A DNA stretch of 64,000 nucleotides. It comes from an uncultured Candidatus Saccharibacteria bacterium (GTDB taxonomy: Bacteria > Patescibacteriota > Saccharimonadia > Saccharimonadales > CAIOMD01). The stretch's first letter is position 1; each line of letters opens with the position of its first letter. The position numbers were made by a program, and so were the translations under genes. Shown in pieces: positions 11,690-57,507 of this stretch. The notes beneath the pieces were generated by a model that did not search any database, was not told the origin of the DNA, and saw only the letters and a program-made list of their open reading frames with translations. The DNA is taken from contig CAZMHM010000002.1 in NCBI GenBank assembly GCA_964566135.1, positions 1,925-65,924 of the forward strand. Reading direction: 5' to 3'.

Positions 11690-12280
11690 CTACTTGCGGT
11701 TTGTGATGATATCGTCGATAAGGCCGTATTTTTTGGCTTCTTCGGCGGTCATCCAATAATCACGCTCTACATCTTTTTCGATAGTTGCGAGCTTTTGGCC
11801 AGTGTTTTTTGCCAACACTTCGTTAAGTAACTTCTTAAGGCGAAGACCCTCCTTAAGGTCAATTTCCATATCGGTAACCTTACCACGGGTGCCGCTACTT
11901 GGCTGGTGAATCATCGTTGTAGCGTGTGGCAACATAAATCGCTTGCCTTTGGCGCCACTGCTTAGCAAGAATGCGCCCATACTCGCCTGTACACCAATAC
12001 CAACAGTCTGTACGTCACACTTTACAAATTGCATGGTGTCGTAAATGGCCATGCCATCATAGACACTGCCGCCCGGGCTGTTAATATAAAAAATAATGTC
12101 TTTTCTAGGGTCTTCTGCCTCTAAAAATAGCATCTGTGCAACCACGAGGTTGGCGGTGTGCTCGTTTACGTCTTCGCCTAAAAAGATGATACGGTCTTTT
12201 AATAGTCGGCTATAAATATCATAGGCACGTTCTACACGGCCATCGTTTTCGATTACGGTTGGAATAAGCATGTTTTTCAT
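11690..12280 (-). CDS. clpP: ATP-dependent Clp protease proteolytic subunit
   Basis: 196 aa with typical ClpP sequence: ...[52 protein letters not shown]...QASMGAFLL...IHQP. Confidence 0.95.
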
Positions 12281-12287
12281 ACCCTAA

Positions 12288-12329
12288 ATTGTAGTCCGTA
12301 AATTAGCACTCGTCAAGCCTGAGTGCTAA
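12288..12329 (-). promoter_or_regulatory. clpP promoter overlapped by a perfect CIRCE inverted repeat
   Basis: TTAGCACTC-N9-GAGTGCTAA occupies 12303..12329, a perfect match to the HrcA operator consensus. On the minus strand, -35 TTGACG (12316..12311) lies inside the element. A 17-nt spacer separates it from -10 TACAAT (12293..12288), which is 7 nt from the ATG. Confidence 0.8.
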
Positions 12330-27551: not shown

Positions 27552-27570
27552 TAGAAACGTAATGTAGTAA

Positions 27571-27598
27571 AAACTCCGCTATCGCTAGCGGAGTTTTT
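27571..27598. terminator. Bidirectional intrinsic terminator
   Basis: AAA-ACTCCGCTA-TCGC-TAGCGGAGT-TTTT lies between convergent genes. Confidence 0.8.
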
Positions 27599-27619
27599 AC
27601 TATTGTTTACAGGTGTAGG

Positions 27620-30450: not shown

Positions 30451-30469
30451 TTAGGCATTCTAACACGTC

Positions 30470-30571
30470 CTAGTGGACAGGGGTTTGGATTGTTGTCATG
30501 TAAATCACATAGCATACACCGACAACAAGTAGTCCAGCCAAAATAATCGTGCGTTTCCACTCTTGATTCAT
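30470..30571 (-). CDS. 33-aa single-TM mini-protein (MNQEWKRTIILAGLLVVGVCYVIYMTTIQTPVH)
   Basis: Hand-translated; it is below the track's size cut-off. Its ATG overlaps the sortase TGA as TGATG. One clear hydrophobic helix. Confidence 0.35.
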   Translation of the reverse strand: MNQEWKRTIILAGLLVVGVCYVIYMTTIQTPVH

Positions 30572-31173: not shown

Positions 31174-31191
31174 TTGACCTTAGTATATAAC

Positions 31192-34100: not shown

Positions 34101-34890
34101 TATTTGCATTACCATCAGCATCAATGTACTTAGTTGTAGTGACCGTACCGCCACAAGTTTGGCTTGCGAAAGTTGCAAGGCTGGTAGCCAATTGTGCAAA
34201 ATCGGTTGTGATTACATCAGATGTTAGAACATTGCCAGTGTTAGCACTTGGACCAGAGATAGCCTTTAGACGATCAAGTGAACCGCCCGATACCCCAATG
34301 CCCATCGCAAGCATACGAGTTCCGCCGTTCTTGATTGTATTAGCGGCAACAATCGCTGGGTCAAGATGCGCATTTGGTTGACCTGAATCAATCCCACCAA
34401 CTGTGTTGCTAGTCGTTGGATCTCCGTCAGTAGCAAAAATAACAAGGTTTGGGTTTGACGTCCCAGAGGCAAAAGTACTATTTGCCTTAATAAGGCCATC
34501 TTCCCAGTTGGTATAGCCGCCACCAGTAGAGACTGAATCAATTGCATTGTTTGCCGTCGTTACGTCGCTGGTGAAGTTTTGGAGCACTGTTGCACTTGTT
34601 GCGAAACGTGTCACAGAAAACTGCGTAGGAGTGCCGCTCAGCGCATTTGTAAATGCTTTTAGTGCACTTTTGAATGAGTTCATTTCATTAGTGCTAATAC
34701 TTGTAGAATTATCGATAACTATAGCTATATCGAGGCCACACGCTCTTGCAAGTGATGGATTCGCGACGGGAGAAGCAGCATGCGCCGTCCCCGCTAAAGT
34801 CGTCAATGGCCCAAACTGAGCGACCACAAACAGTAAACTTAATAATATCCACCGTGCCCTATTCAATGGGTTCTTTGCTCGCAGCTGCAT
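31192..34890 (-). CDS. Sortase-anchored surface protein: signal peptide, vWA domain, repeated Cna-B/SpaA-like Cys-pair domains, DUF11-like repeats, LVNTG sorting signal
   Basis: Signal peptide ...AGTAHA/AS. vWA MIDAS motif DNSTS at 34699..34713. At least 8 modules of about 90-100 aa end in C-x-(I/V)-(T/V)-N-(D/T/S). Near the C-terminus are VTYTFTVTNAGD-type repeats. The C-terminus reads ELVNTG (31285..31299) plus a hydrophobic helix plus RTRTVKK. The SD is strong (AAAGGAGGCGGTTATG). Confidence 0.87.
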   Translation of the reverse strand: MQLRAKNPLNRARWILLSLLFVVAQFGPLTTLAGTAHAASPVANPSLARACGLDIAIVIDNSTSISTNEMNSFKSALKAFTNALSGTPTQFSVTRFATSATVLQNFTSDVTTANNAIDSVSTGGGYTNWEDGLIKANSTFASGTSNPNLVIFATDGDPTTSNTVGGIDSGQPNAHLDPAIVAANTIKNGGTRMLAMGIGVSGGSLDRLKAISGPSANTGNVLTSDVITTDFAQLATSLATFASQTCGGTVTTTKYIDADGNANTTNDQTLAGAGWEFDVNGGSNPAASQTDAQGKTPAVKVDAASGYSVNETQKAGYTLLSASCTGAANNGSKNGNAVTGIQIASNNIVSCKFVNSATKGTLVVNKVVHNNHGGTKTPGNFSFVVNGQTYTFNGNGTNSIVLPTGTYTVDEVNPNTGGYQMTSNTCSNVVVSHNQTTNCTITNDDVTPKLIIKKHVVNDNGGTKVAGNFTMKVTGTNVSNTSFAGDEQGTTVTLNPGSYTVDETVDNEYVKSLGADCSGSIALGETKTCIVTNDDKAAGLTLVKSLIKDNGGTANATDWTLKATGTLALPTNLSGATGTAGATSGSNFKADTYTLSETGGPSGYTASAWTCTNGVTVVSSKITLTNGKTTVCTIVNDDDTPALTLVKKLGETYGSKVDPSNWTLTATGTGNNPTNLSGATGTAGATSGSNFKADTYTFGETGGPSGFTASQWSCVNNVTQQTTTISSALAIALGQSFTCTITNSGVQPKLTVIKHVENGKSGGTGEASDFTMYVDGTNVSDEEFDGSETGTKLTLNVGEYEVSEGSHDGYNVTYSEDCEGTISLGDDKTCTVTNTAIAPTLTLKKQVINNNSGESSPSDWTLTATPSDDEDGADTISGNGEDGVVEETAVANVAYALSEQGPTGYAAGTWWCNDGEQDGNVITLALGENVTCYITNNDNQNPGLEVYKYGPDVAHEGDTVAYSFWVYNSGDTYIDNLSVVDDIAGTADCYGVTSLYPGDWVYCSVEYTIPAPQVANVENTVTSCGDYYGDRWNEGREYGYSEEEGTQVCATDTHTLDVLHPAIKVVKAGPTTAKVGDVVTYTFTVTNAGDEPLEGIAVSDNIAGNGVYQSGDTNSDNKLDVTETWIYTAKYTVPSGSEGKQITNTVTSCGFEPQLEESNPEISILKINTDAINVPKNDAIKVCATDTHTLNVEKPAELVNTGSGSAISASWFITAIMLGGVFIATRTRTVKK
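32801..32874 (-). repeat. 74-nt perfect intragenic direct repeat, copy 1
   Basis: gtataggtatctgccttgaagtttgaaccgcttgttgcaccagcagtgccggtagcacccgaaaggttcgttgg is identical to 33110..33183. The offset is 309 nt, which is 103 codons and therefore in frame. Confidence 0.95.
33110..33183 (-). repeat. 74-nt perfect intragenic direct repeat, copy 2
   Basis: Identical to 32801..32874. Both copies encode PTNLSGATGTAGATSGSNFKADTYT. Confidence 0.95.
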
Positions 34891-35066
34891 AACCGCCTCC
34901 TTTAAATTGCAAAAAGACAGCCAGCCTATTTTGTCCCTTTTTTTGGGAAGCTAGGCTAGTTGTGTTTTCTATTATTCAAACTCCGCAGAGGAGGTTTCGC
35001 CACTTGCTCCGATTACGCTTGGCGACCAAGATACCGCGTAACCATCAATGCACTCTGTTAAAAATT

Positions 35067-35094
35067 ACTATACTCGCATACATGACATTTGCAA
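35067..35094 (-). promoter_or_regulatory. Putative promoter of the vWA surface-protein gene (TTGCAA-N16-TATAGT)
   Basis: On the minus strand, -35 is at 35094..35089 and -10 at 35072..35067. This predicts a 5' UTR of about 170 nt. Confidence 0.45.
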
Positions 35095-35217
35095 ATACAT
35101 TTTTTTATTTTATAGCTATACCGCTTATGTTAAAGAAAATACTGCATTTTATATACACGAGGTGGCCTGTCATCAACAATGACATCTCAAAATTTAGTAT
35201 TGATACTACGTTCCGGA

Positions 35218-35676
35218 TTACGATAAATACTTCGTGAATCTCTGATTCTTTTTGCCAGATTCGACAATTTCACGCAACATATTTAGTTCGTCACTATCAA
35301 GTTTTGTAAGCCCTTGGGCTAGAAAGTCAATAATGAGATTATCGTTTGGGTCTGCTAACTCTAGTGCCCGCAAGAACACTTTGTTGTAACCTTCTTTGTA
35401 CACTTGGCTTAATAAGGTGGCGAGCTCAATATAATCGTCATTTGGTAATTCTGGCCCTAGGTGGGAAGCAATTATATCTGCAACCTGCTTATCGCCAATA
35501 CAATACATCTGAATATCAAGGTAATGCTCTACTGTCGAATTAACACTATGCACGGCAGCAAGAACTGTGCTAAATCTAGTGTCCATTTCAGAAACCAAAG
35601 CCGAATTCTCTTTTAACCAAGTTTGATGCTGATTAGAGATAGCCTGTTTCTCTGCCTTTGAAAATATCGACTGCAC
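35218..35676 (-). CDS. Hypothetical 152-aa cytoplasmic protein (candidate orphan immunity protein)
   Basis: ORF track entry. Third small gene downstream of the RHS toxin. No signal peptide, acidic and helical. Confidence 0.5.
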   Translation of the reverse strand: MQSIFSKAEKQAISNQHQTWLKENSALVSEMDTRFSTVLAAVHSVNSTVEHYLDIQMYCIGDKQVADIIASHLGPELPNDDYIELATLLSQVYKEGYNKVFLRALELADPNDNLIIDFLAQGLTKLDSDELNMLREIVESGKKNQRFTKYLS

Positions 35677-35700
35677 TTGCGTCTTTCTGGTGGTTATCCT

Positions 35701-36216
35701 TTAGCGAGTCTTGTAGGCAAAAATACTATTGATATCTTTGATTACGTCATTAGCCCGATCTTCAACTTGCGATATTTCCCAACCCTTATTTTTATACGTG
35801 TTTGCAATATCCGCTCTGAGTATATCGCAAGCTTTTTCGTAATTGCCGAAAATCTCGCTTACATAGTGAGAAATCTGTCGTTGATACTCACGGGAAAGAT
35901 TTGCTTGCGCCTGAGCGTAATTGTTGTTTTGAGGGTCATCAAGTGTCTCATAGAACATAGGGTTATTTGCCCACTCGGGGAACGAAGTAATGTCACCTGA
36001 TGCTTCGTGGTGCGACGTAACCCAGTCTTCTGGCACCCAATCATCAATAACTTGCAAATCGGACGCATTAATAGGATACGGATACGTGTCATCAGGACCA
36101 CGCATCACCGCTAGAACCTCTCCGCCCTTCTCATTGGCAATAATTGCCGTAACCAAGTAAAAATGGTTACTTTCTATCGGATATTCCTGCGTTTCATTAG
36201 CCAAGGCTACAATCAT
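35701..36216 (-). CDS. Hypothetical 171-aa cytoplasmic protein (candidate immunity protein)
   Basis: ORF track entry. Second small gene downstream of the RHS toxin. No signal peptide, acidic, Trp/Asp-rich. Confidence 0.5.
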   Translation of the reverse strand: MIVALANETQEYPIESNHFYLVTAIIANEKGGEVLAVMRGPDDTYPYPINASDLQVIDDWVPEDWVTSHHEASGDITSFPEWANNPMFYETLDDPQNNNYAQAQANLSREYQRQISHYVSEIFGNYEKACDILRADIANTYKNKGWEISQVEDRANDVIKDINSIFAYKTR

Positions 36217-36292
36217 TATCTAGTTCTTTCAGAATGGATTTCTTTTAAGTCAGCGAGCATTCTCATTTGATTAATAACAGTGGTGCAACTGG

Positions 36293-36721
36293 CTATATAA
36301 GTGCTTTCTTTAAACTTGAGAATTTTTCAGGAATTGACTCTTTCTCGCCATCAAGAATTCGCTTCATCACCCAAGCCATAGGGAAAATTGTATAACCATC
36401 TTTCAGCACATACGGATAGGTATTACTACCTACTGTTTCGTCATCCTGAAACCAGTCACCATCGATATCATTTTTTCTAAGGAAACTCACGATTACGGCT
36501 GCATTTTTAATTGCAATACTACTCAATAAGAGCTCAGGGTCCCGACTTGCATATATCGAATTAAGTCTGCTGTTCAGGTCAAGCGCTATGGCGTCAATCG
36601 TCACCAGACAGTTTTTGTCAACATTTAGTTCGAAACCGAGGTCGGCAGCCGCCGAGATTGCGTCTCGTATATATTTTTGCTCAAGTTCATGCGGAATATT
36701 GTTCATGGTTGTTAATAGCAT
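36293..36721 (-). CDS. Hypothetical 142-aa protein, probable cognate immunity protein of the RHS C-terminal toxin
   Basis: Its start lies 4 nt after the RHS stop codon, on the same strand, and it has no signal peptide. The assignment is by position only. Confidence 0.55.
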   Translation of the reverse strand: MLLTTMNNIPHELEQKYIRDAISAAADLGFELNVDKNCLVTIDAIALDLNSRLNSIYASRDPELLLSSIAIKNAAVIVSFLRKNDIDGDWFQDDETVGSNTYPYVLKDGYTIFPMAWVMKRILDGEKESIPEKFSSLKKALI

Positions 36722-36725
36722 ACAC

Positions 36726-39700
36726 TTAATACTTTGTAATTGTCAGTAAACCGTTACTAGCTGCGTCTTCAAGAGGGCCCGATAGCCGTGCGTCGGAATT
36801 GATTTTTAAAATAAAGGAGAGGTTATCCCTTTGGCTAATACTAACGTAGTCGCGAATTTGATTGGTATATGTTTGATATTGAACATTCTTAGTCTCGCCA
36901 AGAACTCGAGAATTAAGTGTGTCAGGAACACGATATCTCCCAGGTCGCAATACCGAATCGACCCTCGTTGTATTTTGTACTGTATTTGATCGCACCATAC
37001 CGTCGGCGTACTTTTCAAATGCAGTGGCAACTTTTCCTTCAGCTTCAGAAGCATGGGGAGCTATTTGTGCTGCGGTCGGCGTCGAGAACCAATTTTTTAC
37101 TGCTGTTACAACCTTGCCGCCAGAGCTCAACGCTCTACTGCCAGTTGAAATGATTGCACCAGAGCTTCTTGCAACTAGAGCCGCCGCAGTAATATATGGG
37201 GCACTCGCTGCGATTGCTCCAGCTGCCGCGGCGCAGAATGCAATACACGCCGCTACTGCCGCTACTGCAACAACTACTGCTACGGCCACTACAACAGCCT
37301 TGCCCCACGATGGTAGCCCGTTAAACCATTTCTTGACACTCCACATCCCGTTATAATCCGCATAATTGACTGGGTCTAGTACGTATGAGTAGCTATTCGG
37401 CGTGCCGCCCTCAACAGGGTCTACCTGTAGGAACCTGCCTAGCGTAGGCAAGTATACGCGTGCACCCATTTGGATTATTGGGATGCTAAACATGCTTTCT
37501 GACTTACGGGCAGGGTTTGCCGCCCAGCCCATACCTTCGTTACTTGCATTTGTTGGATTCCCACTAGTGCCAAAAGTTGTCGATGCGATAGGTAAGCCAA
37601 ACGGATCATAAAGGTAAACTGCACTTGTGGCAGTCCCATCTTTGCCAACAGTTATAGCGGTGTCGCCATGGAAATTCTTTATAGAATACGTATCGGTGGT
37701 GTTAATGGTCAGCCCTACACCACCAGGTAACGAAACATACTTATCGGCTATTGCGCACTGATTTTCATCTTGTACGTTGCACGTAAGCATTACACTCGAG
37801 CTATTTCGATATATCTTATCAAGTACGCCGTTTCTGAATTCTTTTTTTACAAGGACACTGCCGCTGACAGTTTTGGTGTACTCGACACGGTTTTGACCTT
37901 GCGTAATCGAGATATTCTGATCGTCAGCAGTGTATCCAAATGAAATCGGCGTACCAGCACCAGCAAGCTCGGTAATATTGCCATGATCGTCATAAACAGG
38001 AGTGCCTATTTGCCCATCGCTCGAACTAATCAGCCTATCGGCGCTATCGTAACAGCTGTTTACCGTCGTGGTGACACTTGTAGTGTTATTTGTCACTGTA
38101 TAGGATGTTCTGTTGCCATTCTTATTGGCGTTGGCATTATAGCCGGTCAAGCTACTACAGCTCGAGTCTTGTGCTCCAAATCCATACTGATACAGCATAT
38201 TATCGACGGATGTACTCGTTAGCCTACCGCCTGTGTCATATCCATAGGTTGCCCCTCCGGTTTTGCCATCAAAGCTATTCGCGTAATTAAGCACTATACC
38301 TGATTGCAATGATGATGTGACAGTTTCATCAAATTGCTTACCATCGCTAAGGCTAAATGTTGCTCCCGAATTCTGTTGCATGGCGTCACGTTTAACCTGG
38401 GTAAGTTTCATGTTTGTTCCGTTGGCCTGCGCCTGCGGATATTCAACATTCAGAATTCGGCCAAATTGATCATAGCTTGTTGACGCATATATCTTTCCGT
38501 CTATCGAGTAACTCGTTGGCCTATCGAGAGAATCATATAGATACGATTCTGAACCTTTTATAGATACGATTGACACAATGTGACCAAAGTTATCGCGATT
38601 GATAGTAGTCTCATATCCAAAACTATCGGTTACCTTGACAGGCCTGCCAAGCAAATCAGATTCACTGATACTCGTGCCCGTAACACTGTCCGTCTGGGCA
38701 GTAATGAGTGGATTACCATTGTGCGCAAAGTTATTACTGATGGTGCGCCCAGGCCTTCCATTAACCGTAGGCGAAACCATCTGAACAATCCGGCCTCTAG
38801 CATCAAGACGGGTACAAGTCCATGCATCGTTATTAAACCTTGTTGCTACTACGCGACCCGAGGCATCATACACCGATTCGCTGGTGCGCGACGTTAATGG
38901 ACCTGCGCCATCAGGGTCAGGCTCAGCCTTACCTTTAGCAAATCCAGCCTGGCTAACGGCAATACTGTTTGCGTCACAAGGGTTAGCAATTACGTCTTCT
39001 GTTGCACGATAATACTGATACGCATAGCTATTTCCGCCAGGTAGGGTCTTGGCTGTTTGGCGCATTAAGCTCCCTGCTTGGTATGGCTCGTAAGCAATTG
39101 AGCTTGTAAGATTTAGCCCGCCAGCGTCAGCAGTGATTGATTTTTCTTGGCCAAGTTCTGGTTGCGAACCATAATCTTTTTTTAGCGTGACATTCGAAGT
39201 TTGACTATCATAGGTCGTTGTCGAGGTTACGAGGTTATATGCCGGCCTCATAACATTCGACCAGAACGGATTGCCCGTAGAAAGATCCAGGCCGCCTCCC
39301 TTTATTCTCATACTAAATGCCATGTAGTCATTACCGACGTTGGCATAGTCATACTTAAACCTATAGGGTTTGTTGGCTTCAAGCGTTATTGCCGCCGAGT
39401 AGCTCATCTTGATAGCAGTCCCCCGGTTTGCCCAGTCATCTATGACAAGTTTATCGTCGATATAAAGTCTGGCGGCATCTTCGTGGTTAATCTGGAAGGT
39501 ATAGCTTGCATTTGCGGGCAATACCAGTACGCCTGTTGCAATAAATCCTACACCAGTTGCGCTAGTTGATTTTGTAATCGGCGCAGCCCGATAGTTTGAA
39601 TCTTGCCAAAACAAGTCCGGCTGCTGGCTGTCAAAGCCAGTCTGGTGATACTTTGAAGCTCCAACAAAGGATCCGCCGTTAGCCGAAGAATAGTCATACC

Positions 39701-42700
39701 ATGCCACTGCAGGGCCCTTAAAACCTTCATCATACTTCGTGCTTGTGCGCGGAACTTTGTTCTCGTTTTCGACAAGTGGTTTTAGGTTCGTCCCAAACCA
39801 TCCACTTGGCGCCGGACCGTATGATTCAATTGGCAAATCATTCGCATCGTAAATGGTCGTTGATTTCAGACCGGTTGGATCCGTAGACGCATACAATAAG
39901 TCTTTTGTGCTATCCCATGTACGGGTAGACACGAGACCATCCTTGGCCATGGTACGAACTGGGCGCAACAATGAATCGTATTCCACTCGTTGTGCGTATC
40001 CGTTCGGCATTGAAGATTTCGTGATAACCCATTTATCGTTTGCATCCTTAGCTGACGTGTAGCCATCAGTCATCTCTGCAAAGCCAACGACCTTTTCTTT
40101 CTCATCGCCTGTCCCTAATAAAGTAGAGTTTGGCACATACCTATATGTATGTATTCCCCTCACTCCTCCACTAGAGGCCGAAGGCATAACTACCTGCTCG
40201 ACACGCCCAATACTGTCGTAGACAAACTGCGTCGTTACGGTGTCGTCATTTGCGCGCACGCCAGCATCTACGACATCATTGGCGGTGCTACCTTTGAGTT
40301 GTACAATTCTTCCGTTGGTGTCATATCCGATATCTTGCCTGATACCACCACTCGTTGCGAGTTGCGATAACCTATAGACTTCCTGGTTATTAATGACTAC
40401 TTTTTTGTACCAGAAATTTGTAAAGTTATTATCGGTAGTCTCTGTCCGACACAACATTCCAGCCGGAGCGCGCACTAAGCCATCAGGAGCATTATTCGGA
40501 GAATTACACTGACTATCGCCGCCATAGTACACACGCAAGTTTCGGCTAATATCTACACCATCAATGATCTTTGTTACGTGAGCCGGCGAGCCACCATATT
40601 CATAACGCAATGCCGCTAGTCGTAAATCATCAGTTGGAGTCGTCACTGTTTTTAGTAAACCATCCGTACCAAAATCATATGTCCTGCCATCACTATCAAG
40701 TAGCACAAAAGTACCGTCTGCATTGCGTGCAAGATAGCCGTATTCGTTTACGGGTGGCTTATATGCGCTGCCCGTCCATGTATACTCATGCGTATCGCCG
40801 TTAGAGTCATAGATTAAGGCGCCAGTTGACGTCGCCTTAAGCCTCTCGTAGGCAATACTACCAGTAGGGTCGATGCCCATCGTCCAGCCTTCTGGCAATG
40901 TATTTGCTCCTGTAGTAAGCCAACTACTTGGTACCGTTTCGCTTCGGGTAGCGTTAAGCCATTTAACATAGAACTGCATGGCTGCACCACTGCCATTCTC
41001 ATAGTAGTCAATCGTAACTTTTCGAGTTGTCCCCTCTGCTAGTCGCAGTAATGCCCCACACTGATTTGCGGTTACGCCCTGATCCCTCCAGTAATCTGCA
41101 TACAGCGCATCGTCAAGATACAACCTAAAGCCATCATCGGCCCCGATACAAAACTGATAATCTGTTGTTTGCGGAACCGTGATATAGCCCGACCATCGAG
41201 TCACGACCCTATCTGCAATTCCCGAGCCTGGCAAGAACTCGCCTGTTCCCCAGTTGAATTGCATAACTTTGTCTTGACGCGTCATAAATGGTGCCCTTGC
41301 TTGAGGAACTGCGAAGCCCTCGCCGTCGTTCAGCTTGTAATAACGACCGGTCAAACCAGCATTAGGTTTAGTTGCTTTCAAGCCAGTGCGTAACCAGTCG
41401 TTTGGAATAACGCGGTCGCTGATAATGACAGCTCCTGAGGTATCTTTAGCCCGAACCCACATCTTTGCCTGTGCGCCGCCACCATATTCAATCATCCATG
41501 CATTAAGTGGAACGGCTTGGCCTTCGACCAAATCAATGCCAACAGTGTCCCCCCAACTACTTCCGGGAGCGGTGTAGTCGAACACAAGCGTTCCGTTAAT
41601 AGCCGCGGACATTTTGTCATCGCGGGTTGAACCAAAATAGTACTTTCCCGTCTTAGGGGCCACGAAATATCCAGTCCAATTAGCCGCAAAGTTATCCGCG
41701 ACAATTGTCCCTGGCTGCGGGCTTGATAGCCCCCAATCAAAGTCAATATTTGCATCAACACGCGTTAGGCCAACTTTTGTAGCATCTCCGCCTGGCGCAT
41801 TGTAATACGTTGCATCAAGCCCTTTTTGACTCATAACAGGCGAATTGTAATCCAAATTTATACCCATCGCCCCGCCAAGCGCATTCATAGTGTTAGAGCC
41901 TACACTAGTCGTAAGGTTACCCGTTACCAAGTTAACTGATGTGCCTGCGACTTCGTCGTATACCTGAGAATTATTTTTACCCGTTCGCAAGTCTACTTTA
42001 AATGGTATTGGTTGTGTCACGTTCCAATAGTCACCACCCCTTGCATAGTGAGTTGTGACATCGGCGTTATCAAATACATAACCGCAGAACCAATACGTCT
42101 GACCATCGTCAAGCACTCCGTCAGGTACAGTCCACTGCGTAGCTGGTACTAATTGCGAATCGACTAAAATGCTAGCCGGATTCCAACAATCTACTGGTTT
42201 CGATGTCATAACCCTAAACCAATATTTAAGTGTATCGCCATTACCGTCACCACTTGCTCCCATTTTAAACGAAGGCTGAGTGCTCGTTAGAATCTGAGGG
42301 TTGCCCGAACTATTGGCAGGTAAGGCAGGCACTATTGGGGTCGGTGCGGTTGGTTGTTTGTTGTAGTCTACGAGATACATATCTACAAAGGTGCCGTATG
42401 GGTCAAGTTGTTTAAAGCTCGTTGTGTTCCATTCTTCGCCATAAATCATTAGCCAACCACCATAGTCACCACGGCTTTGTAGCCATCTAAAGATTGGTGC
42501 AATATCTGCCCATCCATCCGTTGCCATCTGGAATTGGACAACTGGCGCACCGCCTCCGTTATTGTAATTAAACGCAGGTAGCCATGTAACATACATCCAG
42601 CGAGTATCGGTATAGCCTACCCAACTTGCTGTACCAAGGCGCATATTGGTATGTAGCCATGCAGACTCAATGTAGCGACCGTTCGCATCACCGTAAGGGA

Positions 42701-43964
42701 TTTGAAATCCGGTATGCCAAAGTCTCTTACCGGCACCAGCTTGGTTTAATGAACCTGTATACATCCAACAGTTTGCACTAGAACACACGTAGCCGTCAGA
42801 CTTGTAATCGACATAACTATTGCTGTTGTTGTTTACCCCTCTACGCCACGCCCCAAAACTTGGGTCGACTACCACCGGAAAGCTCGTCTTTGGCAAAGAG
42901 CTCAACCAGCTTGGCAGAACTTGTACCACAAAGAAACCGTTTTTGTAGGTGACTTTGATTGGTGGATTACTCATCGGGCCCTCACCCCAAACACTAACCG
43001 TAAAAGGGGCGATGTTGATTTTCGAATCTTTAACCGCCCAATAACCGTCACCTGCATCTACAAGCTCGCCTCCAAGAACCTTAAACATATATGTGTTTGC
43101 AGCCGAAGCATTCTTTATAACAATTGATTCTTTGATTGATTCCGGGCTGATATCGTACTGCAAATCAATGCCATTCCAGGCATCTTTATATGCAATGTAG
43201 TTCCGCCCCTTATCTGTAACTTCTTTAGGGATTACTTTGTCTGATGTACCAATTGGCACAAAACGCACGCTTTTTACTCCGTCACTCACAAGCATACCGT
43301 CACCATCCATGAGCGTCTGCAGTTGTACAGACAGCTCGGATGTTTTTGCATTTAGCGCGGTAGGTTGCGAAGAACCAGGGAGTATTTTTTGCAGGATACT
43401 TTCGCTTTGCTTACGATTTTTGGCGTAGTTTGTATCACTACTTGTCGAGTTATCATGTTTTTGCCAGCCTGATGACGTCTTATCATTTGTAGATGTCGCA
43501 CCAATCCGTTTTGCCAGTGTACCGTCGGCTAACGTCTGCTGGTTTGTCTTTGCATCGACAGCTTCCAGTTTACCTGTGTCAATTTTCCTCGCAGATTTTT
43601 GGTGCTCTGAAGTAATGCTTTTGCCAACATCAGAAGGATTAATAGTATCTTCTTGTTTTGCACTCTCTGGAATACTACTCATATCAGCGGCCTGCGTTAT
43701 TTTCTGGTCTTGGGCAGATTTTTGGCTGGCAGATAAAGGCTTTGATTTCCCGTTTTCGGCAACCGCCTTATTAACATTCGTAGCAATAGGTAGCAAGAAC
43801 GATGCTACAAATGCAACAATAAAAAACAGCGCCATGAGACGCTGTTTTTGGGAGTTAACCTTTGAAAGAGGGCGCGAAAAAGCGCCTGTCGCCGCGATAA
43901 ATAGTGGACGTTTTGGACTTTTTGCGGTGTTTGTGTGGATGCGCTTCAAATGCAAATATGGCAT
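36726..43964 (-). CDS. RHS/YD-repeat polymorphic toxin (WapA-like): signal/TM, N-terminal beta-rich region, 3 PA14 domains, YD-repeat shell, RHS core motif, hydrophobic linker, PD-ExK nuclease-like C-terminus
   Basis: 2412 aa. The N-terminal hydrophobic segment is MALFFIVAFVASFLLPIATNVNKAVA. PA14-like blocks lie at about aa 715-845 (41430..41822), 869-1003 (40956..41360) and 1415-1560 (39285..39722), each with YY...F.W...P...F..RWTG-type patterns. There are many YD repeats (YEYGG, IGYDTNGR, FVYDSIGR, VEYDSLLR, YGYDTGGR...). The RHS core end reads GARVYLPTLGRFLQVDPVEGG..NSYSYVLDPVNYADYNGMW. A 204-aa C-terminal module follows. Confidence 0.92.
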   Translation of the reverse strand: MPYLHLKRIHTNTAKSPKRPLFIAATGAFSRPLSKVNSQKQRLMALFFIVAFVASFLLPIATNVNKAVAENGKSKPLSASQKSAQDQKITQAADMSSIPESAKQEDTINPSDVGKSITSEHQKSARKIDTGKLEAVDAKTNQQTLADGTLAKRIGATSTNDKTSSGWQKHDNSTSSDTNYAKNRKQSESILQKILPGSSQPTALNAKTSELSVQLQTLMDGDGMLVSDGVKSVRFVPIGTSDKVIPKEVTDKGRNYIAYKDAWNGIDLQYDISPESIKESIVIKNASAANTYMFKVLGGELVDAGDGYWAVKDSKINIAPFTVSVWGEGPMSNPPIKVTYKNGFFVVQVLPSWLSSLPKTSFPVVVDPSFGAWRRGVNNNSNSYVDYKSDGYVCSSANCWMYTGSLNQAGAGKRLWHTGFQIPYGDANGRYIESAWLHTNMRLGTASWVGYTDTRWMYVTWLPAFNYNNGGGAPVVQFQMATDGWADIAPIFRWLQSRGDYGGWLMIYGEEWNTTSFKQLDPYGTFVDMYLVDYNKQPTAPTPIVPALPANSSGNPQILTSTQPSFKMGASGDGNGDTLKYWFRVMTSKPVDCWNPASILVDSQLVPATQWTVPDGVLDDGQTYWFCGYVFDNADVTTHYARGGDYWNVTQPIPFKVDLRTGKNNSQVYDEVAGTSVNLVTGNLTTSVGSNTMNALGGAMGINLDYNSPVMSQKGLDATYYNAPGGDATKVGLTRVDANIDFDWGLSSPQPGTIVADNFAANWTGYFVAPKTGKYYFGSTRDDKMSAAINGTLVFDYTAPGSSWGDTVGIDLVEGQAVPLNAWMIEYGGGAQAKMWVRAKDTSGAVIISDRVIPNDWLRTGLKATKPNAGLTGRYYKLNDGEGFAVPQARAPFMTRQDKVMQFNWGTGEFLPGSGIADRVVTRWSGYITVPQTTDYQFCIGADDGFRLYLDDALYADYWRDQGVTANQCGALLRLAEGTTRKVTIDYYENGSGAAMQFYVKWLNATRSETVPSSWLTTGANTLPEGWTMGIDPTGSIAYERLKATSTGALIYDSNGDTHEYTWTGSAYKPPVNEYGYLARNADGTFVLLDSDGRTYDFGTDGLLKTVTTPTDDLRLAALRYEYGGSPAHVTKIIDGVDISRNLRVYYGGDSQCNSPNNAPDGLVRAPAGMLCRTETTDNNFTNFWYKKVVINNQEVYRLSQLATSGGIRQDIGYDTNGRIVQLKGSTANDVVDAGVRANDDTVTTQFVYDSIGRVEQVVMPSASSGGVRGIHTYRYVPNSTLLGTGDEKEKVVGFAEMTDGYTSAKDANDKWVITKSSMPNGYAQRVEYDSLLRPVRTMAKDGLVSTRTWDSTKDLLYASTDPTGLKSTTIYDANDLPIESYGPAPSGWFGTNLKPLVENENKVPRTSTKYDEGFKGPAVAWYDYSSANGGSFVGASKYHQTGFDSQQPDLFWQDSNYRAAPITKSTSATGVGFIATGVLVLPANASYTFQINHEDAARLYIDDKLVIDDWANRGTAIKMSYSAAITLEANKPYRFKYDYANVGNDYMAFSMRIKGGGLDLSTGNPFWSNVMRPAYNLVTSTTTYDSQTSNVTLKKDYGSQPELGQEKSITADAGGLNLTSSIAYEPYQAGSLMRQTAKTLPGGNSYAYQYYRATEDVIANPCDANSIAVSQAGFAKGKAEPDPDGAGPLTSRTSESVYDASGRVVATRFNNDAWTCTRLDARGRIVQMVSPTVNGRPGRTISNNFAHNGNPLITAQTDSVTGTSISESDLLGRPVKVTDSFGYETTINRDNFGHIVSIVSIKGSESYLYDSLDRPTSYSIDGKIYASTSYDQFGRILNVEYPQAQANGTNMKLTQVKRDAMQQNSGATFSLSDGKQFDETVTSSLQSGIVLNYANSFDGKTGGATYGYDTGGRLTSTSVDNMLYQYGFGAQDSSCSSLTGYNANANKNGNRTSYTVTNNTTSVTTTVNSCYDSADRLISSSDGQIGTPVYDDHGNITELAGAGTPISFGYTADDQNISITQGQNRVEYTKTVSGSVLVKKEFRNGVLDKIYRNSSSVMLTCNVQDENQCAIADKYVSLPGGVGLTINTTDTYSIKNFHGDTAITVGKDGTATSAVYLYDPFGLPIASTTFGTSGNPTNASNEGMGWAANPARKSESMFSIPIIQMGARVYLPTLGRFLQVDPVEGGTPNSYSYVLDPVNYADYNGMWSVKKWFNGLPSWGKAVVVAVAVVVAVAAVAACIAFCAAAAGAIAASAPYITAAALVARSSGAIISTGSRALSSGGKVVTAVKNWFSTPTAAQIAPHASEAEGKVATAFEKYADGMVRSNTVQNTTRVDSVLRPGRYRVPDTLNSRVLGETKNVQYQTYTNQIRDYVSISQRDNLSFILKINSDARLSGPLEDAASNGLLTITKY

Positions 43965-44028
43965 TTAGTGGGCTCCAATGGTTATTGTAAATATTCGTCT
44001 TGGTTAACTCCACCGAGACTTAAGCCGA

Positions 44029-44056
44029 ATTATAAGCAAAAATTTATGAAATGCAA
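44029..44056 (-). promoter_or_regulatory. Putative promoter of the RHS gene (TTGCAT-N16-TATAAT)
   Basis: On the minus strand, -35 is at 44056..44051 and -10 at 44034..44029, about 60 nt upstream of the ATG. Confidence 0.45.
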
Positions 44057-44123
44057 GTACATTTTTGTCAAATTAACTTTAATATTCGTCAAAGTTATTA
44101 TTTAGCAATGTCTCAGATTGTAG

Positions 44124-45083
44124 TTATTTGATGTTATCAAGACGGCTATCAAGGCTCTTTGCAAGCCCCTGTTGCTGTACGGCAAGATTGTTTCGTTGTT
44201 CTACTATTTTGTTGTATTCGTCTATAAGCACCTTAACGTTGGCAACCTCTGCATTGTAGGCGCTAACAGATGCGTTATACGATGAAACTTGTGCATTATA
44301 TGCTTTGGTTTGTCCGGAACGTAGTTGAGTATCCATCTGCAGTTTTTGGGCTTCGAGCTGCTTTCCCTTAGCATCTAAGGCCGCTTCTCGCTGCGTAATT
44401 TCCGCCTTGCGGAGCGTCAAATCTGCATCGTATTTTGCAACCTGCGTATTAATGTCTTCAAAAACTTTTTTGTAGCTATTCGAGAGTGCCACAACCTTGC
44501 CCCTATCGGTGAAGTATTTCGCATAGTACGCCTCAAGCTCGGGGCCTAAGTTTGCGTATTCGGTACCGAGTATCGAGTGTAGCTCGTTAGCTTCTTCGCC
44601 AGGTTCTGTCTTTTGATAGCTTGCCATTACCTCAGTTAAGTGAGGATCATTCACACGCTTATAGGCGTCCTGCACAAGTGCGTCAATCCGCTGCTTATCT
44701 TTTTTCGATAACCGTTGATAGGCGGCATGGAGCATCTCGTGAGCGGCGGTAACTTCTTCTACACCATTCAATTTTGCGTCTTCAACTTTAAAAACGTAAA
44801 TATTTGTGCCGGTATAGCACCCGAGTACAATGGTCTGTTCTGTTGTTTTGCATTCCGAATTAAATGTTTGCCTGTCGGATATCTGCGGTTCGTTAACATA
44901 AAAAAGTCGTTTGCCGTAATCATTCATGCCACTGTTGTTTGATAGTTCGGCAACAGCCACTGGCGCAGTATAGTTGCGCAACCGCGACCAGTCATAGATA
45001 TTAAACCGATTACTCCACACTAAACCTGCAATAGCTAGGATTGCAATCAACGCAAACAGTGATCCGAGTGTCTTTTTTGACAT
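44124..45083 (-). CDS. Membrane-anchored protein with HExxH motif and C-terminal coiled coil (putative metallopeptidase)
   Basis: N-terminal TM segment (LGSLFALIAILAIAGLVW). It contains HEMLH and a Cys pair (CKTTEQTIVLGC). The C-terminal 110 aa are heptad-like and rich in Gln/Ala/Lys. Confidence 0.6.
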   Translation of the reverse strand: MSKKTLGSLFALIAILAIAGLVWSNRFNIYDWSRLRNYTAPVAVAELSNNSGMNDYGKRLFYVNEPQISDRQTFNSECKTTEQTIVLGCYTGTNIYVFKVEDAKLNGVEEVTAAHEMLHAAYQRLSKKDKQRIDALVQDAYKRVNDPHLTEVMASYQKTEPGEEANELHSILGTEYANLGPELEAYYAKYFTDRGKVVALSNSYKKVFEDINTQVAKYDADLTLRKAEITQREAALDAKGKQLEAQKLQMDTQLRSGQTKAYNAQVSSYNASVSAYNAEVANVKVLIDEYNKIVEQRNNLAVQQQGLAKSLDSRLDNIK

Positions 45084-45107: not shown

Positions 45108-47585
45108 CTATTCTTTGACGACAGAAAAACGTAAGCCTTTTTTGTCAGTTCCCACCTTAATTACATCTCCATCATTGTAAGCACCGCTTAAGACCGCTTC
45201 TGCTATATGGTCTTCAATTGTATCTTGGATCAGGCGTCGCATTGGTCGCACACCGTTATGCGCATCATAGCCGTTTTCGAGCAGCCATTCCTTAGCGGGA
45301 GTATTAAGAACTAAACCTAGTTTCTTGCGTTGCAATCGACTCTGTAGCTCTGCGATTTGGACATCGATAATCTTTTTGACGTCGTCTTTCGTAAGCGCAC
45401 GGAACACAATAATCTTATCGATTCGGTTAATGAGTTCAGGACGCATGTGCTTTTTAAGCTCGTCATTGACTTTGTCTTTATTCTCTTCGTGAAGAGTATC
45501 AAGATCTTTTGCGTCTTTAGCGCCAACCCTGAATCCTAAACTAGCTTCTTTTTGCAACAAATGCGCACCGATATTACTTGTCATGATGATGATGGTATTC
45601 CTAAAATCAACCTTGCGACCTTTCGCATCGGTTAACTCACCATCTTCGAAAATCTGCAAAAGCATGTTAAAGACTTCTGGGTGAGCTTTTTCGATTTCAT
45701 CAAACAGCACGAGACTATATGGTTGGCGACGAATCTTATCGGTTAACTGGCCCCCTTCTTCGTATCCGACATAGCCCGCAGGCGCACCAACTAGTCGAGC
45801 AACGGTATGTCGTTCACTAAACTCACTCATATCAATCTTAATTAACGCATCATCACGACCAAAGAATTCGTGTGCCAAAATGCGTGCAAGCTCTGTCTTA
45901 CCAACACCCGTCGGACCCATAAAGATAAACGAACCAATGGGGCGCTTTTCGCTACCAATTCCAGAGCGACTTCGGCGAATTGCCTTAGCCACTGCCTCGA
46001 CCGCTTCTTTTTGTCCAATGACGTGCCTTGTAAGCTGCTGCTCTAGCTTCAAAAGGTTCTTAGCCTCTTGACGTACAAGTTTGCGAACCGGTACACCGGT
46101 CGCCTGGCTAACAACGGCAGCGATATCATCGCTACTTAGTGTTAGGCGCTTGTGTGACGCAGTCTTTTCTTTAAGTGATTCTAACTTTTCTTGTGCGGCA
46201 CTAATACGTTGCTTATACTTCGCAGCGCGTTCATAATCTTCTTGCTCTACGGCATCATCACGGCGAACCGTCAGTAGTTTAATTTCTTTTAAGAGGGTTC
46301 GGTATTCAGTAGGAGTCTTGCCTTTATCAACGCGCAACAAAGCTGCTGCTTCGTCGAGCAAGTCAATCGCCTTATCGGGCATAAATCGATCGTTAATATA
46401 GCGATCTGCAAAATAGACTGCATCTTCGACAATTTTATCGTCGATAACCACGCCATGAAAATGCTCATAATGGCTTTTGAGCCCTTTTAAGATAGCTATT
46501 GTTTCTGGGACGGTAGTTTCTGGGACAACAACAGGCTGGAATCGACGCTCAAGCGCGGCGTCTTTTTCGATATGCTTATGATATTCACTCGTCGTGGTAG
46601 CGCCAATAACTTGGATATGCCCACGCGCAAGTGCTGGCTTTAAAATATTGCCGGCATCTATCGCACCTTCGGCAGCACCAGCGCCAACCAGTAGGTGCAT
46701 TTCATCAATAAAGACAATGATTTTCCTGTCATTAGTAAGCTCATCCATCACCTTTTTTAGGCGTTCTTCAAACTCACCACGATATTTGGTGCCTGCAATC
46801 ATAGCAGCTAAATCAAGCATAACTATTCTCTTATCAAGCAGGCTATCAGGCACATCCTCGGCAACAATGCGCTGGGCAAGGCCTTCGACGACTGCAGTTT
46901 TGCCAACTCCCGGCTCACCAATAAGGACAGGATTGTTTTTGCTACGTCGATTTAAGATAGTAATCATTCGACGCACAACGCCTTCTCTGCCAATTACTGG
47001 ATCTAGCTTTCCGCTCGCAGCAAGCGCGGTTAAGTCTGTTCCAAAGTATTCAAGTGCACTTTTGTTGCCTTTCTTTTTCGTACGCGTAGCTGTGCGCTTT
47101 TGGCCATCTTGTTCGCTTTCATACTGTTGGCGATGCAAAAACTGCTCGAGTTCTTCAAGCAACCTATCAATATCGACATTCATATCACGTAGCAGTACTG
47201 TTGCTCGGGCATTCTTTTGCATAAGCATGCTATACAAAATGTGCTCTGTACCGCACATATCTTGGTTAAAGTCTTGGGCGTAATCCCAGCTAAGCTTTAA
47301 AGCCAGCTTGGCTGTTTCGCTCAGGCCTTTAGCACCTAAGTTGATGACAAGGTTCTTAGGCGTCAAATTGAGTGCAAGTTGTGCACGCTGGAAGTTAACC
47401 CCTGCAGATTCGAGCATCTTTGCTGCAACAGAAGATTCTTGGCTTAAAACGCCGAGCAGTACGTGTTCGGTACCGACATACGCACTACCTTGCGTACGCG
47501 CAATTTGATCAGCCTGCTTAAGGCTCATCAAAGCATTTTCGGTTAAATGGTTCAAAAATTCTTGAAAATCAGGTGATTCAGGCAT
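45108..47585 (-). CDS. clpC: ATP-dependent Clp protease ATP-binding subunit ClpC-type (class I AAA+)
   Basis: 825 aa. Duplicated Clp_N repeat, Walker A motifs GEPGVGKTA and GPTGVGKTE, and two AAA+ modules. Confidence 0.93.
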   Translation of the reverse strand: MPESPDFQEFLNHLTENALMSLKQADQIARTQGSAYVGTEHVLLGVLSQESSVAAKMLESAGVNFQRAQLALNLTPKNLVINLGAKGLSETAKLALKLSWDYAQDFNQDMCGTEHILYSMLMQKNARATVLLRDMNVDIDRLLEELEQFLHRQQYESEQDGQKRTATRTKKKGNKSALEYFGTDLTALAASGKLDPVIGREGVVRRMITILNRRSKNNPVLIGEPGVGKTAVVEGLAQRIVAEDVPDSLLDKRIVMLDLAAMIAGTKYRGEFEERLKKVMDELTNDRKIIVFIDEMHLLVGAGAAEGAIDAGNILKPALARGHIQVIGATTTSEYHKHIEKDAALERRFQPVVVPETTVPETIAILKGLKSHYEHFHGVVIDDKIVEDAVYFADRYINDRFMPDKAIDLLDEAAALLRVDKGKTPTEYRTLLKEIKLLTVRRDDAVEQEDYERAAKYKQRISAAQEKLESLKEKTASHKRLTLSSDDIAAVVSQATGVPVRKLVRQEAKNLLKLEQQLTRHVIGQKEAVEAVAKAIRRSRSGIGSEKRPIGSFIFMGPTGVGKTELARILAHEFFGRDDALIKIDMSEFSERHTVARLVGAPAGYVGYEEGGQLTDKIRRQPYSLVLFDEIEKAHPEVFNMLLQIFEDGELTDAKGRKVDFRNTIIIMTSNIGAHLLQKEASLGFRVGAKDAKDLDTLHEENKDKVNDELKKHMRPELINRIDKIIVFRALTKDDVKKIIDVQIAELQSRLQRKKLGLVLNTPAKEWLLENGYDAHNGVRPMRRLIQDTIEDHIAEAVLSGAYNDGDVIKVGTDKKGLRFSVVKE

Positions 47586-47631
47586 GATATGTATACCCTT
47601 TCTATACCGAGCTACCCCCGGATATACATCT

Positions 47632-47672
47632 AGTATAGCAATAAATTAGCACTCGTCAATAACGAGTGCTAA
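47632..47672 (-). promoter_or_regulatory. clpC promoter overlapped by a perfect CIRCE inverted repeat
   Basis: TTAGCACTC-N9-GAGTGCTAA occupies 47646..47672. On the minus strand, -35 TTGACG (47659..47654) lies inside the element. A 16-nt spacer separates it from -10 TATACT (47637..47632). Confidence 0.8.
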
Positions 47673-47694
47673 TTATACATTGTAAGTATGCGAA

Positions 47695-48876
47695 TTACTC
47701 TGTAGCGTCTTCGCCGTGTTCTTCGATAGCTTCAAGGAGGCTATTTTCTAAATCACTCTTGCGCTTTAGCTTAGGTGCATTAGCAGCGTGAACAACCTTT
47801 GCCTCTTCGGGCTTAATTGGCTCTTCTGCCTTAACTGGCTGTTCGCTTTCGATATCAAGTTCATAGCCACTTAGCTTGCTCGCAAGGCGAACATTTTGGC
47901 CACTCTTACCGATTGCAACTGAAAGCTGATCTTCGGGTACAATAACGCGCGCCTTGTGATTCTTTTCATCAAGTTCGACGCGAGTCACATTTGTTGGGCT
48001 CAGCGCATTTGTAATGTACTGCTTAGTTTCGTCAGCCCAGATAACAATATCAATCTTCTCTTGTTCGCCAATTTCACTCATAACTGCTTGCACACGAGTA
48101 CCATGACCACCAACAAAGGTGCCAACAGGGTCTACGCCCTGTACTGTGCTGGCAACTGCAATCTTACTGCGCACGCCGGCTTCGCGGGCAATACCTTTAA
48201 TAACAACTGCGCCGTTTTCCATTTCTGGCACTTCTGCACGAAATAGATGTTCTAGGAATTCTGGGCAACCGCGACTAACAATAAGCTGTGCACCCCTAAA
48301 ACCACGCTCGACATCTTTTAGATATACCTTTAAGCGTTGTCCGGGATAGTAGCGCTCACCTTGAATTTGTTCGCTAGCAGGCATGATGCCTTGTGCTTTG
48401 TTAAGCTCAAGGCGAATCAAACGACCTTCTACGCGAGTTACAGTACCGTTGATAACGGTGTGAATCTTATCTTCGAACTCAGCCATAACGATTTCTCGCT
48501 CGGCTTCACGCAAACGCTGCAAGATAACTTGCTTCGCAGTCTGCGCAGCAACACGGCCAAAGTTTTCAACCTTTTCTTCGATTTCAACAGTCTCGCCTGC
48601 TTTTGCGTTCTTACGGATAACTTGCGCATCGCCGACACTAATTTGCAAGAACTCGTTTTCAACTTCGTCAACGACTTCTTTGGTGATGTACACAAATACC
48701 GTACCGTTGTTTACATTGATAACTGCTCGAACTTCTTGTTCGCGATCACCGTAGTCGCGACGCCATGCTGCAGCAAGTGCTTGCTCAACTGCATCTTGTA
48801 CGACGTCTTCTGGTAAATTCTTTTCTTCGGCGATTGCCTTAACCGCCATCACTAGTTGTTTTGTCTCTAATTCCAT
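47695..48876 (-). CDS. nusA: Transcription termination/antitermination factor NusA
   Basis: N-terminal domain, S1 and two KH regions (..GQNVRLASKLSGYELDI..). The start is taken at ATG 48876, 7 nt after AAGGAG; the track's first Met is a TTG. Confidence 0.93.
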   Translation of the reverse strand: MELETKQLVMAVKAIAEEKNLPEDVVQDAVEQALAAAWRRDYGDREQEVRAVINVNNGTVFVYITKEVVDEVENEFLQISVGDAQVIRKNAKAGETVEIEEKVENFGRVAAQTAKQVILQRLREAEREIVMAEFEDKIHTVINGTVTRVEGRLIRLELNKAQGIMPASEQIQGERYYPGQRLKVYLKDVERGFRGAQLIVSRGCPEFLEHLFRAEVPEMENGAVVIKGIAREAGVRSKIAVASTVQGVDPVGTFVGGHGTRVQAVMSEIGEQEKIDIVIWADETKQYITNALSPTNVTRVELDEKNHKARVIVPEDQLSVAIGKSGQNVRLASKLSGYELDIESEQPVKAEEPIKPEEAKVVHAANAPKLKRKSDLENSLLEAIEEHGEDATE

Positions 48877-48895
48877 CAAAAATCTCCTTATCTCA

Positions 48896-48917
48896 TGAAA
48901 AAAGCCGACCTTTCGGC
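48896..48917 (-). terminator. Terminator-like hairpin inside the nusA leader
   Basis: The minus strand reads GCCGA-AAGG-TCGGC followed by TTTTTT, ending 7 nt before the SD of nusA. Confidence 0.5.
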
Positions 48918-48989
48918 CGGACTCAGTAACAAATAAATGGTATCATACTTATTGACTATTTTCAAACCGTCTAACGAAAGAACAATACA

Positions 48990-57216: not shown

Positions 57217-57507
57217 CTAGCGAGTCCTTTTTTCTTCTCGTTTGCGCTGCGCTATCATCGCGCGCCGCTCAAGCTCTGTTTTGCCGGCCCATATCCCTGC
57301 CATATGCTCATCACTGAGGGCAAATTCTAGGCAAGCAGACGTTACAGTGCATTTTCGGCAAACAGCTTTTGCTTGCTCGATCTGATTAAGGTATACGCCC
57401 GAATTGCCTATTGGGAAGAATAGTTCAGGATCTTCATTCCGGCAGACCGCTTTGTGACGCCAATCTAAACGCTTGTCACTGTCGGGCTCCGAAATGGATT
57501 CTGACAT
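57217..57507 (-). CDS. whiB: WhiB-like (Wbl) iron-sulfur transcription factor
   Basis: Four Cys in a C-x29-C-x2-C-x5-C arrangement (AVCRNEDPELFFP...AKAVCRKCTVTSAC), a G(I/V)W(G/A)G turn (GIWAG) and a basic tail (RRAMIAQRKREEKRTR). Confidence 0.88.
   Translation of the reverse strand: MSESISEPDSDKRLDWRHKAVCRNEDPELFFPIGNSGVYLNQIEQAKAVCRKCTVTSACLEFALSDEHMAGIWAGKTELERRAMIAQRKREEKRTR

Follow-up and report, generated by a model that had tools for sequence, protein, structure and literature searches.

To our knowledge, almost nothing is known about how genes are regulated in Saccharibacteria and other bacteria of the Candidate Phyla Radiation (CPR), and full-text searches of the literature returned no paper on HrcA or CIRCE in Saccharibacteria, Patescibacteria or the CPR. 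HrcA is normally a controller of chaperones only. In the window analyzed here (the whole 64-kb stretch of DNA, from a divergent Saccharibacterium), CIRCE palindromes instead lie at the promoters of two Clp genes, clpC and clpP. This raises the question of whether the element at clpC is an HrcA operator that would place the Clp protease under heat-shock control, or whether it is a terminator of the preceding nusA gene, a relic, or the site of some other factor.

The clpC element, its promoter and its neighbors

A perfect CIRCE, TTAGCACTC-N9-GAGTGCTAA, is located at 47646-47672 on the minus strand, i.e., in the sense of the genes, upstream of a gene for a clpC-type ATPase. The plus strand of this interval reads TTAGCACTCGTCAATAACGAGTGCTAA and the gene-sense strand reads TTAGCACTCGTTATTGACGAGTGCTAA, which is parsed as TTAGCACTC-GTTATTGAC-GAGTGCTAA and has no mismatch to the CIRCE consensus (18/18). 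Scanning of both strands of the 64 kb with up to 3 mismatches allowed gave two CIRCE sites, this one and a sister at 12303-12329, both on the minus strand, compared to a chance expectation of ~0.03 matches (mean of 100 dinucleotide-preserving shuffles). Each of the two overlaps a clp promoter candidate, in both cases the one good promoter-like site ahead of the gene. For the clpC element, an Rfam search returned no known RNA family, the lone match (E = 0.49) being meaningless.

The element is interlocked with the promoter. A promoter scan of the region 47300-48000 returned a single promoter-like site, the clpC promoter on the minus strand, consisting of TTGACG (47659-47654), a 16-nt spacer and TATACT (47637-47632) with a preceding TG. 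Of the –35 hexamer, five bases sit inside the N9 spacer of the CIRCE and the final G opens the right arm, with the left arm just upstream of the –35 and the right arm filling the first half of the –35/–10 spacer. Relative to the predicted transcription start, the element would span about –47 to –21. The same layout is found at clpP, and an 18-mer, TTGACGAGTGCTAATTTA, is common to the two sites. The original prediction had read a perfect CIRCE at 47646..47672 with TTGACG embedded in it and TATACT 16 nt on, had counted two such sites in 64 kb, both at clp genes, and had put the nusA stop 22 nt upstream of the element. Each of these readings was borne out, by the exact 18/18 match, by the promoter scan, by the two-strand scan and by the coordinates of the open reading frames, respectively. 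The features concerned, all on the minus strand, are as follows.

47646..47672, minus strand: predicted CIRCE operator of the clpC promoter; exact match, kept at orthologous clpC promoters
47654..47659, minus strand: –35 hexamer TTGACG of clpC, from the promoter scan and the sequence
47632..47640, minus strand: extended –10 element TGcTATACT of clpC, 16 nt past the –35; 10/12 matches in the scan, TG present
47586..47625, minus strand: predicted clpC 5' UTR of ~40 nt, placed from the –10 position, with AAAGGG before the ATG
47642..47676, minus strand: extended palindrome or RNA hairpin, from the RNA fold; 3' region of any nusA read-through transcript
45108..47585, minus strand: clpC-type Hsp100 ATPase of 825 aa; Pfam Clp_N (x2), AAA, AAA_lid_9, UVR, AAA_2 and ClpB_D2-small
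47695..48879, minus strand: nusA; Pfam NusA_N, S1 and KH_5
44124..45083, minus strand: open reading frame for a 319-aa protein, starting 24 nt after clpC and probably co-transcribed with it
12303..12329, minus strand: sister CIRCE at the clpP promoter; exact match, kept before clpP in four related loci
12288..12316, minus strand: clpP promoter TTGACG-17-TACAAT, laid out as at clpC with the –35 inside the element
11690..12280, minus strand: clpP; Pfam CLP_protease (2.6e-80), above the cutoff of the NCBIfam ClpP subfamily

The protein encoded by clpC has two Clp_N repeats, two AAA+ modules, a short UVR-type middle domain and a D2-small domain. It reaches neither the ClpB nor the ClpA equivalog cutoff of NCBIfam, and its translated D2 module carries an SLGF loop of the kind used for ClpP docking. 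The TAA stop of nusA (47697-47695) is the feature lying 22 nt upstream of the CIRCE. A structured leader or RNA thermometer in the clpC 5' UTR was considered and rejected, given that the region folds no better than its shuffles (z = –0.64). The 319-aa protein, which starts with a membrane helix, contains an HExxH-type motif (HEMLH) and ends in a long tail resembling a coiled coil, matched no family in Pfam or NCBIfam. Because its gene is kept directly after clpC in relatives (four loci), it probably belongs to a clpC stress operon.

Several further observations were made on the window. In relatives, clpC, the 319-aa gene (where present), radA and a gene for a PIN protein are contiguous; here, ~14 kb (29935-44124) is inserted between the clpC/319-aa pair and radA, and this insert carries genes for a 2412-aa RHS/YD-repeat-like protein and a 1232-aa protein, together with small open reading frames. 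Two matches to the c-di-GMP-II riboswitch exceed the Rfam gathering thresholds, one at 15297-15378 (minus strand), upstream of the reading frame 14583-15107, and one at 34980-35063 (minus strand), upstream of the gene for the 1232-aa secreted or surface protein (31192-34890). The leader of nusA (48905-48965, minus strand) resembles an attenuator: a promoter TTGAAA-17-TGaTACCAT is followed by the short hairpin CCGGCC-gaaa-GGTCGG with UUUUUU, and beyond the hairpin come a Shine-Dalgarno sequence AAGGAG and the nusA ATG (48875), so that this may be a leader terminator autoregulated by NusA. A WhiB-family gene is found at 57217-57507 (minus strand; Pfam Whib, 3e-23) in this Saccharibacteria genome; WhiB regulators are usually associated with Actinobacteria. 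At clpP, a 133-aa reading frame (12326-12727, minus strand) ends in a TAG that falls inside the left arm of the CIRCE; it has no family match, and because a homologue is absent from the related loci, it may be no real gene. The clpP –10 ends 6-7 nt ahead of the ATG (12280-12293), and with this gap of ~7 nt the clpP mRNA is probably leaderless. Two related clpP loci have the same leaderless look, and clpC of several relatives (four loci) looks leaderless too.

Conservation of the composite promoter and its proposed partner repressor

ClpC relatives were searched among one genome per GTDB species. The nearest came from uncultured Candidatus Saccharibacteria, with identities of 68, 61, 51, 48 and 47%, followed by unrelated phyla; the closest ClpC identity of ~68-70% marks the window as coming from a divergent member of the group. 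A CIRCE with 0-2 mismatches lies immediately upstream of clpC in all five Saccharibacteria reference loci and in none of 75 loci from other phyla, two Clostridia loci among the latter carrying one elsewhere. The one imperfect element among the five reference loci (L002) bears the identical base change in both arms, and its symmetry is thereby kept. More than five further metagenome loci also have a CIRCE before clpC. The gene order nusA-CIRCE-clpC-319-aa gene-radA is common to five of the related loci, and the tight spacing between nusA and the CIRCE (5-45 nt) recurs in four of these.

To what extent the promoter shares this conservation was seen in an anchored comparison of 19 sites (14 at clpC and 5 at clpP). 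The arms are invariant, whereas the flanks and the N9 spacer have diverged so far that they are not alignable. In all 19 the spacer nevertheless holds a –35 of the TTG type, with a –10 following at a distance of 16-18 nt. This –35 mostly follows directly on the left arm in relatives (TTAGCACTC-TTGACA...); compared to that common register it is shifted by 2 nt in L002 and by 4 nt, deeper into the spacer, in both promoters of the window. The register found in the window, TTAGCACTC-N5-TTGACGAGTGCTAA, had no match in a viral-contig scan or in any of the retrieved loci. Because the –35 register varies in this way among relatives, the shared 18-mer is a lineage-specific register of a phylum-wide design. 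The original prediction took the shared string as the mark of a conserved composite promoter and operator; the composite design is indeed phylum-wide, but the exact string belongs to this lineage. CIRCE is thus kept at both clp promoters across Saccharibacteria with ClpC identities of only 47-70%.

The composite promoter was then surveyed in metagenomes with a pattern for the common Saccharibacteria form, TTAGCACTCTTG-N6-GAGTGCTAATT, which matched at least 120 loci. The pattern fixes a TTG behind the left arm and a TT behind the right one, which biases the gene-class counts as a census of the regulon, and the classes were assigned by simple sequence motifs; read in this light, the first downstream gene among the matches listed was HrcA at least 38 times, DnaK at least 15, DnaJ at least 8, HtpG at least 7, ClpC at least 6, N-terminally short ClpB and ClpP at least 4 each, full ClpB and Hsp20 at least 3 each, and GroES at least 2, with one locus reading groES-groEL. 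Among the matches listed, a –10 hexamer stands at a distance of 16-18 nt from the embedded TTGNNN in 73 of 113 deduplicated sites, compared to ~11% by chance. The correctly spaced –10 is present, among these same matches, at all sites before ClpC (7), ClpP (4), ClpB (7), DnaK (16) and DnaJ (6) and at 20 of 25 before short HrcA; it is present at none of the 11 listed sites before long HrcA (~355 aa) and none of the 3 before HtpG. These long-HrcA and HtpG sites, which are probably from other phyla, are followed at some distance downstream by a promoter of their own. In relatives and in CPR-type metagenome contigs, the composite promoter thus precedes hrcA-grpE-dnaK-dnaJ, dnaK, dnaJ and groES-groEL.

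A tandem arrangement was also observed. The dnaK and hrcA promoters of relatives have two CIRCE copies (nine loci), one surrounding the –35 and another, with slight degeneracy (often TTGGCACTC...GAGTGCTAA), located in the leader just past the –10. At the clp promoters, only the copy around the –35 is present.

A six-frame motif search found no HrcA in the 64-kb window or in the first 80 loci, and groESL and dnaK, like hrcA, are absent from the window. In the metagenome loci, short HrcA genes (217-245 aa, ~235) head hrcA-grpE-dnaK-dnaJ operons. A protein search with one short HrcA returned more than 8000 relatives that have the HrcA_C and HrcA winged-helix domains, several of them named by NCBI as Candidatus Saccharibacteria bacterium, and on the contigs of two such proteins hrcA-grpE-dnaK-...-dnaJ stands behind a perfect CIRCE with TTGACA in the spacer; a weaker, degenerate second CIRCE is found in the leader of the short-hrcA operons. 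In two loci, the sequence flanking hrcA, up to 10 kb in length, was free of clp genes, so that hrcA and a CIRCE-bearing clpC were not seen together on one contig.

By domain content the short protein is an HrcA: it matches the Pfam HrcA_C and HrcA winged-helix families (PF01628 and PF03444), and its N-terminal domain aligns to the structure of Thermotoga maritima HrcA, 1STZ (E = 1e-27). It is ~100 aa shorter than characterized HrcA (~340 aa); by profile coordinates the missing ~100 residues are central, and only the second half of HrcA_C is matched. Its scores of 178-187 bits fall just under the 197-bit cutoff of the NCBI HrcA equivalog, which is why it is annotated merely as 'transcriptional regulator'. 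A structure prediction from a 28-sequence alignment had a mean pLDDT of 42, too low for use. We assume that the DNA specificity of the short HrcA and its regulation by GroEL are the same as in characterized HrcA. Because the promoter of the short hrcA itself bears this element, repressor and operator appear to be paired in the phylum. At the phylum level, HrcA and its operator would then be a working pair, with clpC and clpP as regular carriers of the operator.

Function of the element: operator, terminator or relic

These comparisons suggest that the clpC element is probably a functional HrcA operator built into a sigma-70-type clpC promoter. The original prediction, which merged an HrcA-type CIRCE operator with the promoter of clpC in a design like that at clpP, is supported, since the element is exact, far from expected by chance (two sites compared to ~0.03), embedded in the promoter and conserved. 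By sequence, the Clp genes of this genome are probably switched by HrcA as part of a class-I heat-shock regulon. For the mechanism we infer that this genome encodes HrcA, that HrcA binds and represses, that heat induces, and where transcription starts. An HrcA dimer on both half-sites would cover the –35 together with the first half of the promoter spacer, and at normal temperature would thereby exclude RNA polymerase. When unfolded proteins accumulate, HrcA activity would be lost and the clpC promoter freed; in model bacteria, inactivation of HrcA follows titration of GroEL (PMC3842655). The clpC gene would then be transcribed together with the 319-aa gene behind it, and the like design at 12303-12329 would lead to a parallel induction of clpP. 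Since the –35 is offset by 0, 2 or 4 bp depending on the relative and the overlap is always kept, steric exclusion fits better than a face-specific contact.

A second function, compatible with an HrcA operator, is suggested by the position of the palindrome: once transcribed, the hairpin followed by UUUAUU could terminate nusA transcripts or protect their 3' end, insulating clpC from read-through. The extended palindrome that the original prediction had described is present, with perfect 13-bp arms, AATTAGCACTCGT/ACGAGTGCTAATT, around a 5-nt center (47644-47674), and outer RNA pairs extend it further. The predicted fold has a 14-pair stem with a 3-nt loop and a centroid energy of –21.1 kcal/mol (z = –3.4 for the 91-nt region), and the tail that follows is UUUAUUGCU. 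A stable hairpin of 14 pairs and about –21 kcal/mol thus begins 22 nt past the nusA stop, with no other terminator-like structure between nusA and clpC. Its tail, TTTATTGCTA, is about as T-rich as those of convincing terminators in the window, e.g., after clpP (TTGTTGTGTA, 11671-11646) and after rpsG, and the tails of the other convincing ones, after a tRNA and between convergent genes at 27565-27602, are no more T-rich. The tightness of the nusA-CIRCE spacing (5-45 nt) recurs in relatives, and 45 of 80 composite sites follow a co-directional reading frame within 60 nt. However, a consensus terminator scan made no call at the clpC element on the gene strand, the stem is GC-poor, and the extra inner pairs of the clpC site (GT/AC) are not kept in relatives. 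Moreover, sites after a co-directional reading frame (n = 45) do not differ from those without one (n = 28): their hairpins have energies of –15.05 vs –14.86 kcal/mol (p = 0.76), and the T count of the next 10 nt is 5.58 vs 5.54 (p = 0.84). Because adjacent and non-adjacent sites are alike, the terminator-like look is better seen as a generic by-product of an operator joined to an AT-rich promoter spacer. Of the claim that the element also acts as an RNA hairpin at the end of the nusA transcript, the stable hairpin 22 nt past the stop was confirmed, but hairpin and tail are not stronger after co-directional genes. A terminator role for nusA is physically plausible without specific support, as an added role and not as an alternative to the operator; we regard the dual use as possible though somewhat doubtful.

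Two other readings would take HrcA out of the picture. If the lineage had lost HrcA, the palindromes would be relic operators that are decaying or now serve as mere promoter-flanking hairpins; HrcA is indeed absent from the 64-kb window, and CPR genomes are strongly reduced. Against this, both sites are perfect (18/18) although their N9 spacers and flanks have diverged from all relatives, and HrcA is widespread in the phylum. That both promoters have been re-registered by 4 nt with the arms intact argues for continuing selection on the arms, and we consider a relic very unlikely. Even less probable, in our judgment, is that the element is bound by another clp regulator such as CtsR or ClgR, or that it has nothing to do with HrcA and is a mobile repeat or a product of chance. 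The usual regulators of clpC and clpP in Firmicutes and Actinobacteria are CtsR or ClgR and not HrcA (background in PMC3842655), yet the sequence here is the exact CIRCE consensus and not a CtsR heptad repeat, and in relatives hrcA, dnaK, dnaJ and groES stand behind an identical element. The CtsR box RGTCAAA-N3-RGTCAAA gave 6 matches in the window at 3 mismatches compared to 7.0 expected, none of them near clpC or clpP. A dispersed repeat is contradicted by the presence of just two copies in the window, both at orthologously conserved positions, and, like another binder, draws no support from Rfam. Since no CtsR box lies near the clp genes and no ctsR-mcsA-mcsB precedes clpC, HrcA seems to replace the Firmicute clp regulator here.

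Relation to known HrcA/CIRCE systems and implications

In Bacillus subtilis, CIRCE is transcribed into the mRNA, since it is located at the transcription start or beyond it. The elements of the window, by contrast, lie upstream of the predicted start and enclose the –35. In the class I heat-shock response of B. subtilis and many other bacteria, HrcA acts with CIRCE at groESL and hrcA-grpE-dnaK-dnaJ (PMC3842655). The system proposed here shares with it the identical 9-bp inverted repeat with a 9-nt spacer, the vegetative sigma-70-type promoters and, in Saccharibacteria relatives, an hrcA that heads the dnaK operon and, bearing the element at its own promoter, would control itself. It differs in that its targets here are clpC and clpP, and in that the HrcA of the phylum is ~100 aa shorter.

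A closer likeness in reach is offered by Mollicutes, in which HrcA/CIRCE regulons comprise the dnaK operon together with lon and clpB (PMC5138195), a CIRCE at lon having been described in M. pneumoniae (PMC7737663). There, too, genomes are small, HrcA is the one conserved stress regulator, its regulon extends to genes for AAA+ proteases or disaggregases, and some promoters have tandem CIRCE, as the hrcA and dnaK promoters do in Saccharibacteria. Unlike Saccharibacteria, Mollicutes are without ClpP and ClpC, their targets being lon and clpB, and they belong to an unrelated phylum; the –35-embedded design is reported in neither of the two Mollicutes papers (PMC5138195, PMC7737663).

The repression of clpC can also be compared with that in the ctsR-mcsA-mcsB-clpC-radA operon of Firmicutes. 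Both have a stress-inducible repression of clpC at an operator that overlaps the promoter (predicted in the present case), and the order clpC-radA-PIN protein is kept in Saccharibacteria relatives. Repressor and operator differ, however, and nusA stands upstream in place of ctsR, mcsA and mcsB. A precedent for a CIRCE-bearing clpP in an HrcA regulon is Streptococcus salivarius clpP, which, in work by Chastanet and Msadek from 2003 (cited in PMC3842655), was reportedly found to be dually controlled by CtsR and HrcA. That gene has a CtsR box as well, whereas clpP and clpC of the window are without one, and clpC, a classic CtsR target, bears CIRCE instead.

The finding thus extends the known HrcA/CIRCE system, in kind unchanged, to a further phylum and a further member of the regulon; its two local peculiarities are the –35 inside the operator and the short HrcA. 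It leaves knowledge of how HrcA and CIRCE work unchanged. Because the operator design is the same, the Clp protease would fall into one regulon with hrcA-grpE-dnaK-dnaJ, groESL, clpB and hsp20. A wider proposal, which we advance tentatively and with slightly more doubt than belief, is that in Saccharibacteria, and probably much of the CPR, the whole proteostasis network (DnaK/DnaJ/GrpE, GroESL, Hsp20, ClpB and ClpCP) may run on one minimal circuit with a truncated HrcA (~235 aa), a phylum-specific promoter with the –35 in the CIRCE, and a palindrome that, genes being densely packed in these genomes, doubles as the terminator or 3' stabilizer of the upstream gene; the literature searched describes no circuit of this type in a CPR organism.

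For the biology of these organisms, the implication is that one conserved repressor-operator pair appears to govern both chaperones and the Clp protease in ultra-small epibionts, in parallel to Mollicutes, where HrcA became the main stress regulator. The module in which the –35 lies inside the CIRCE may be of aid in reading CPR promoters and in building inducible expression tools for cultivable strains.
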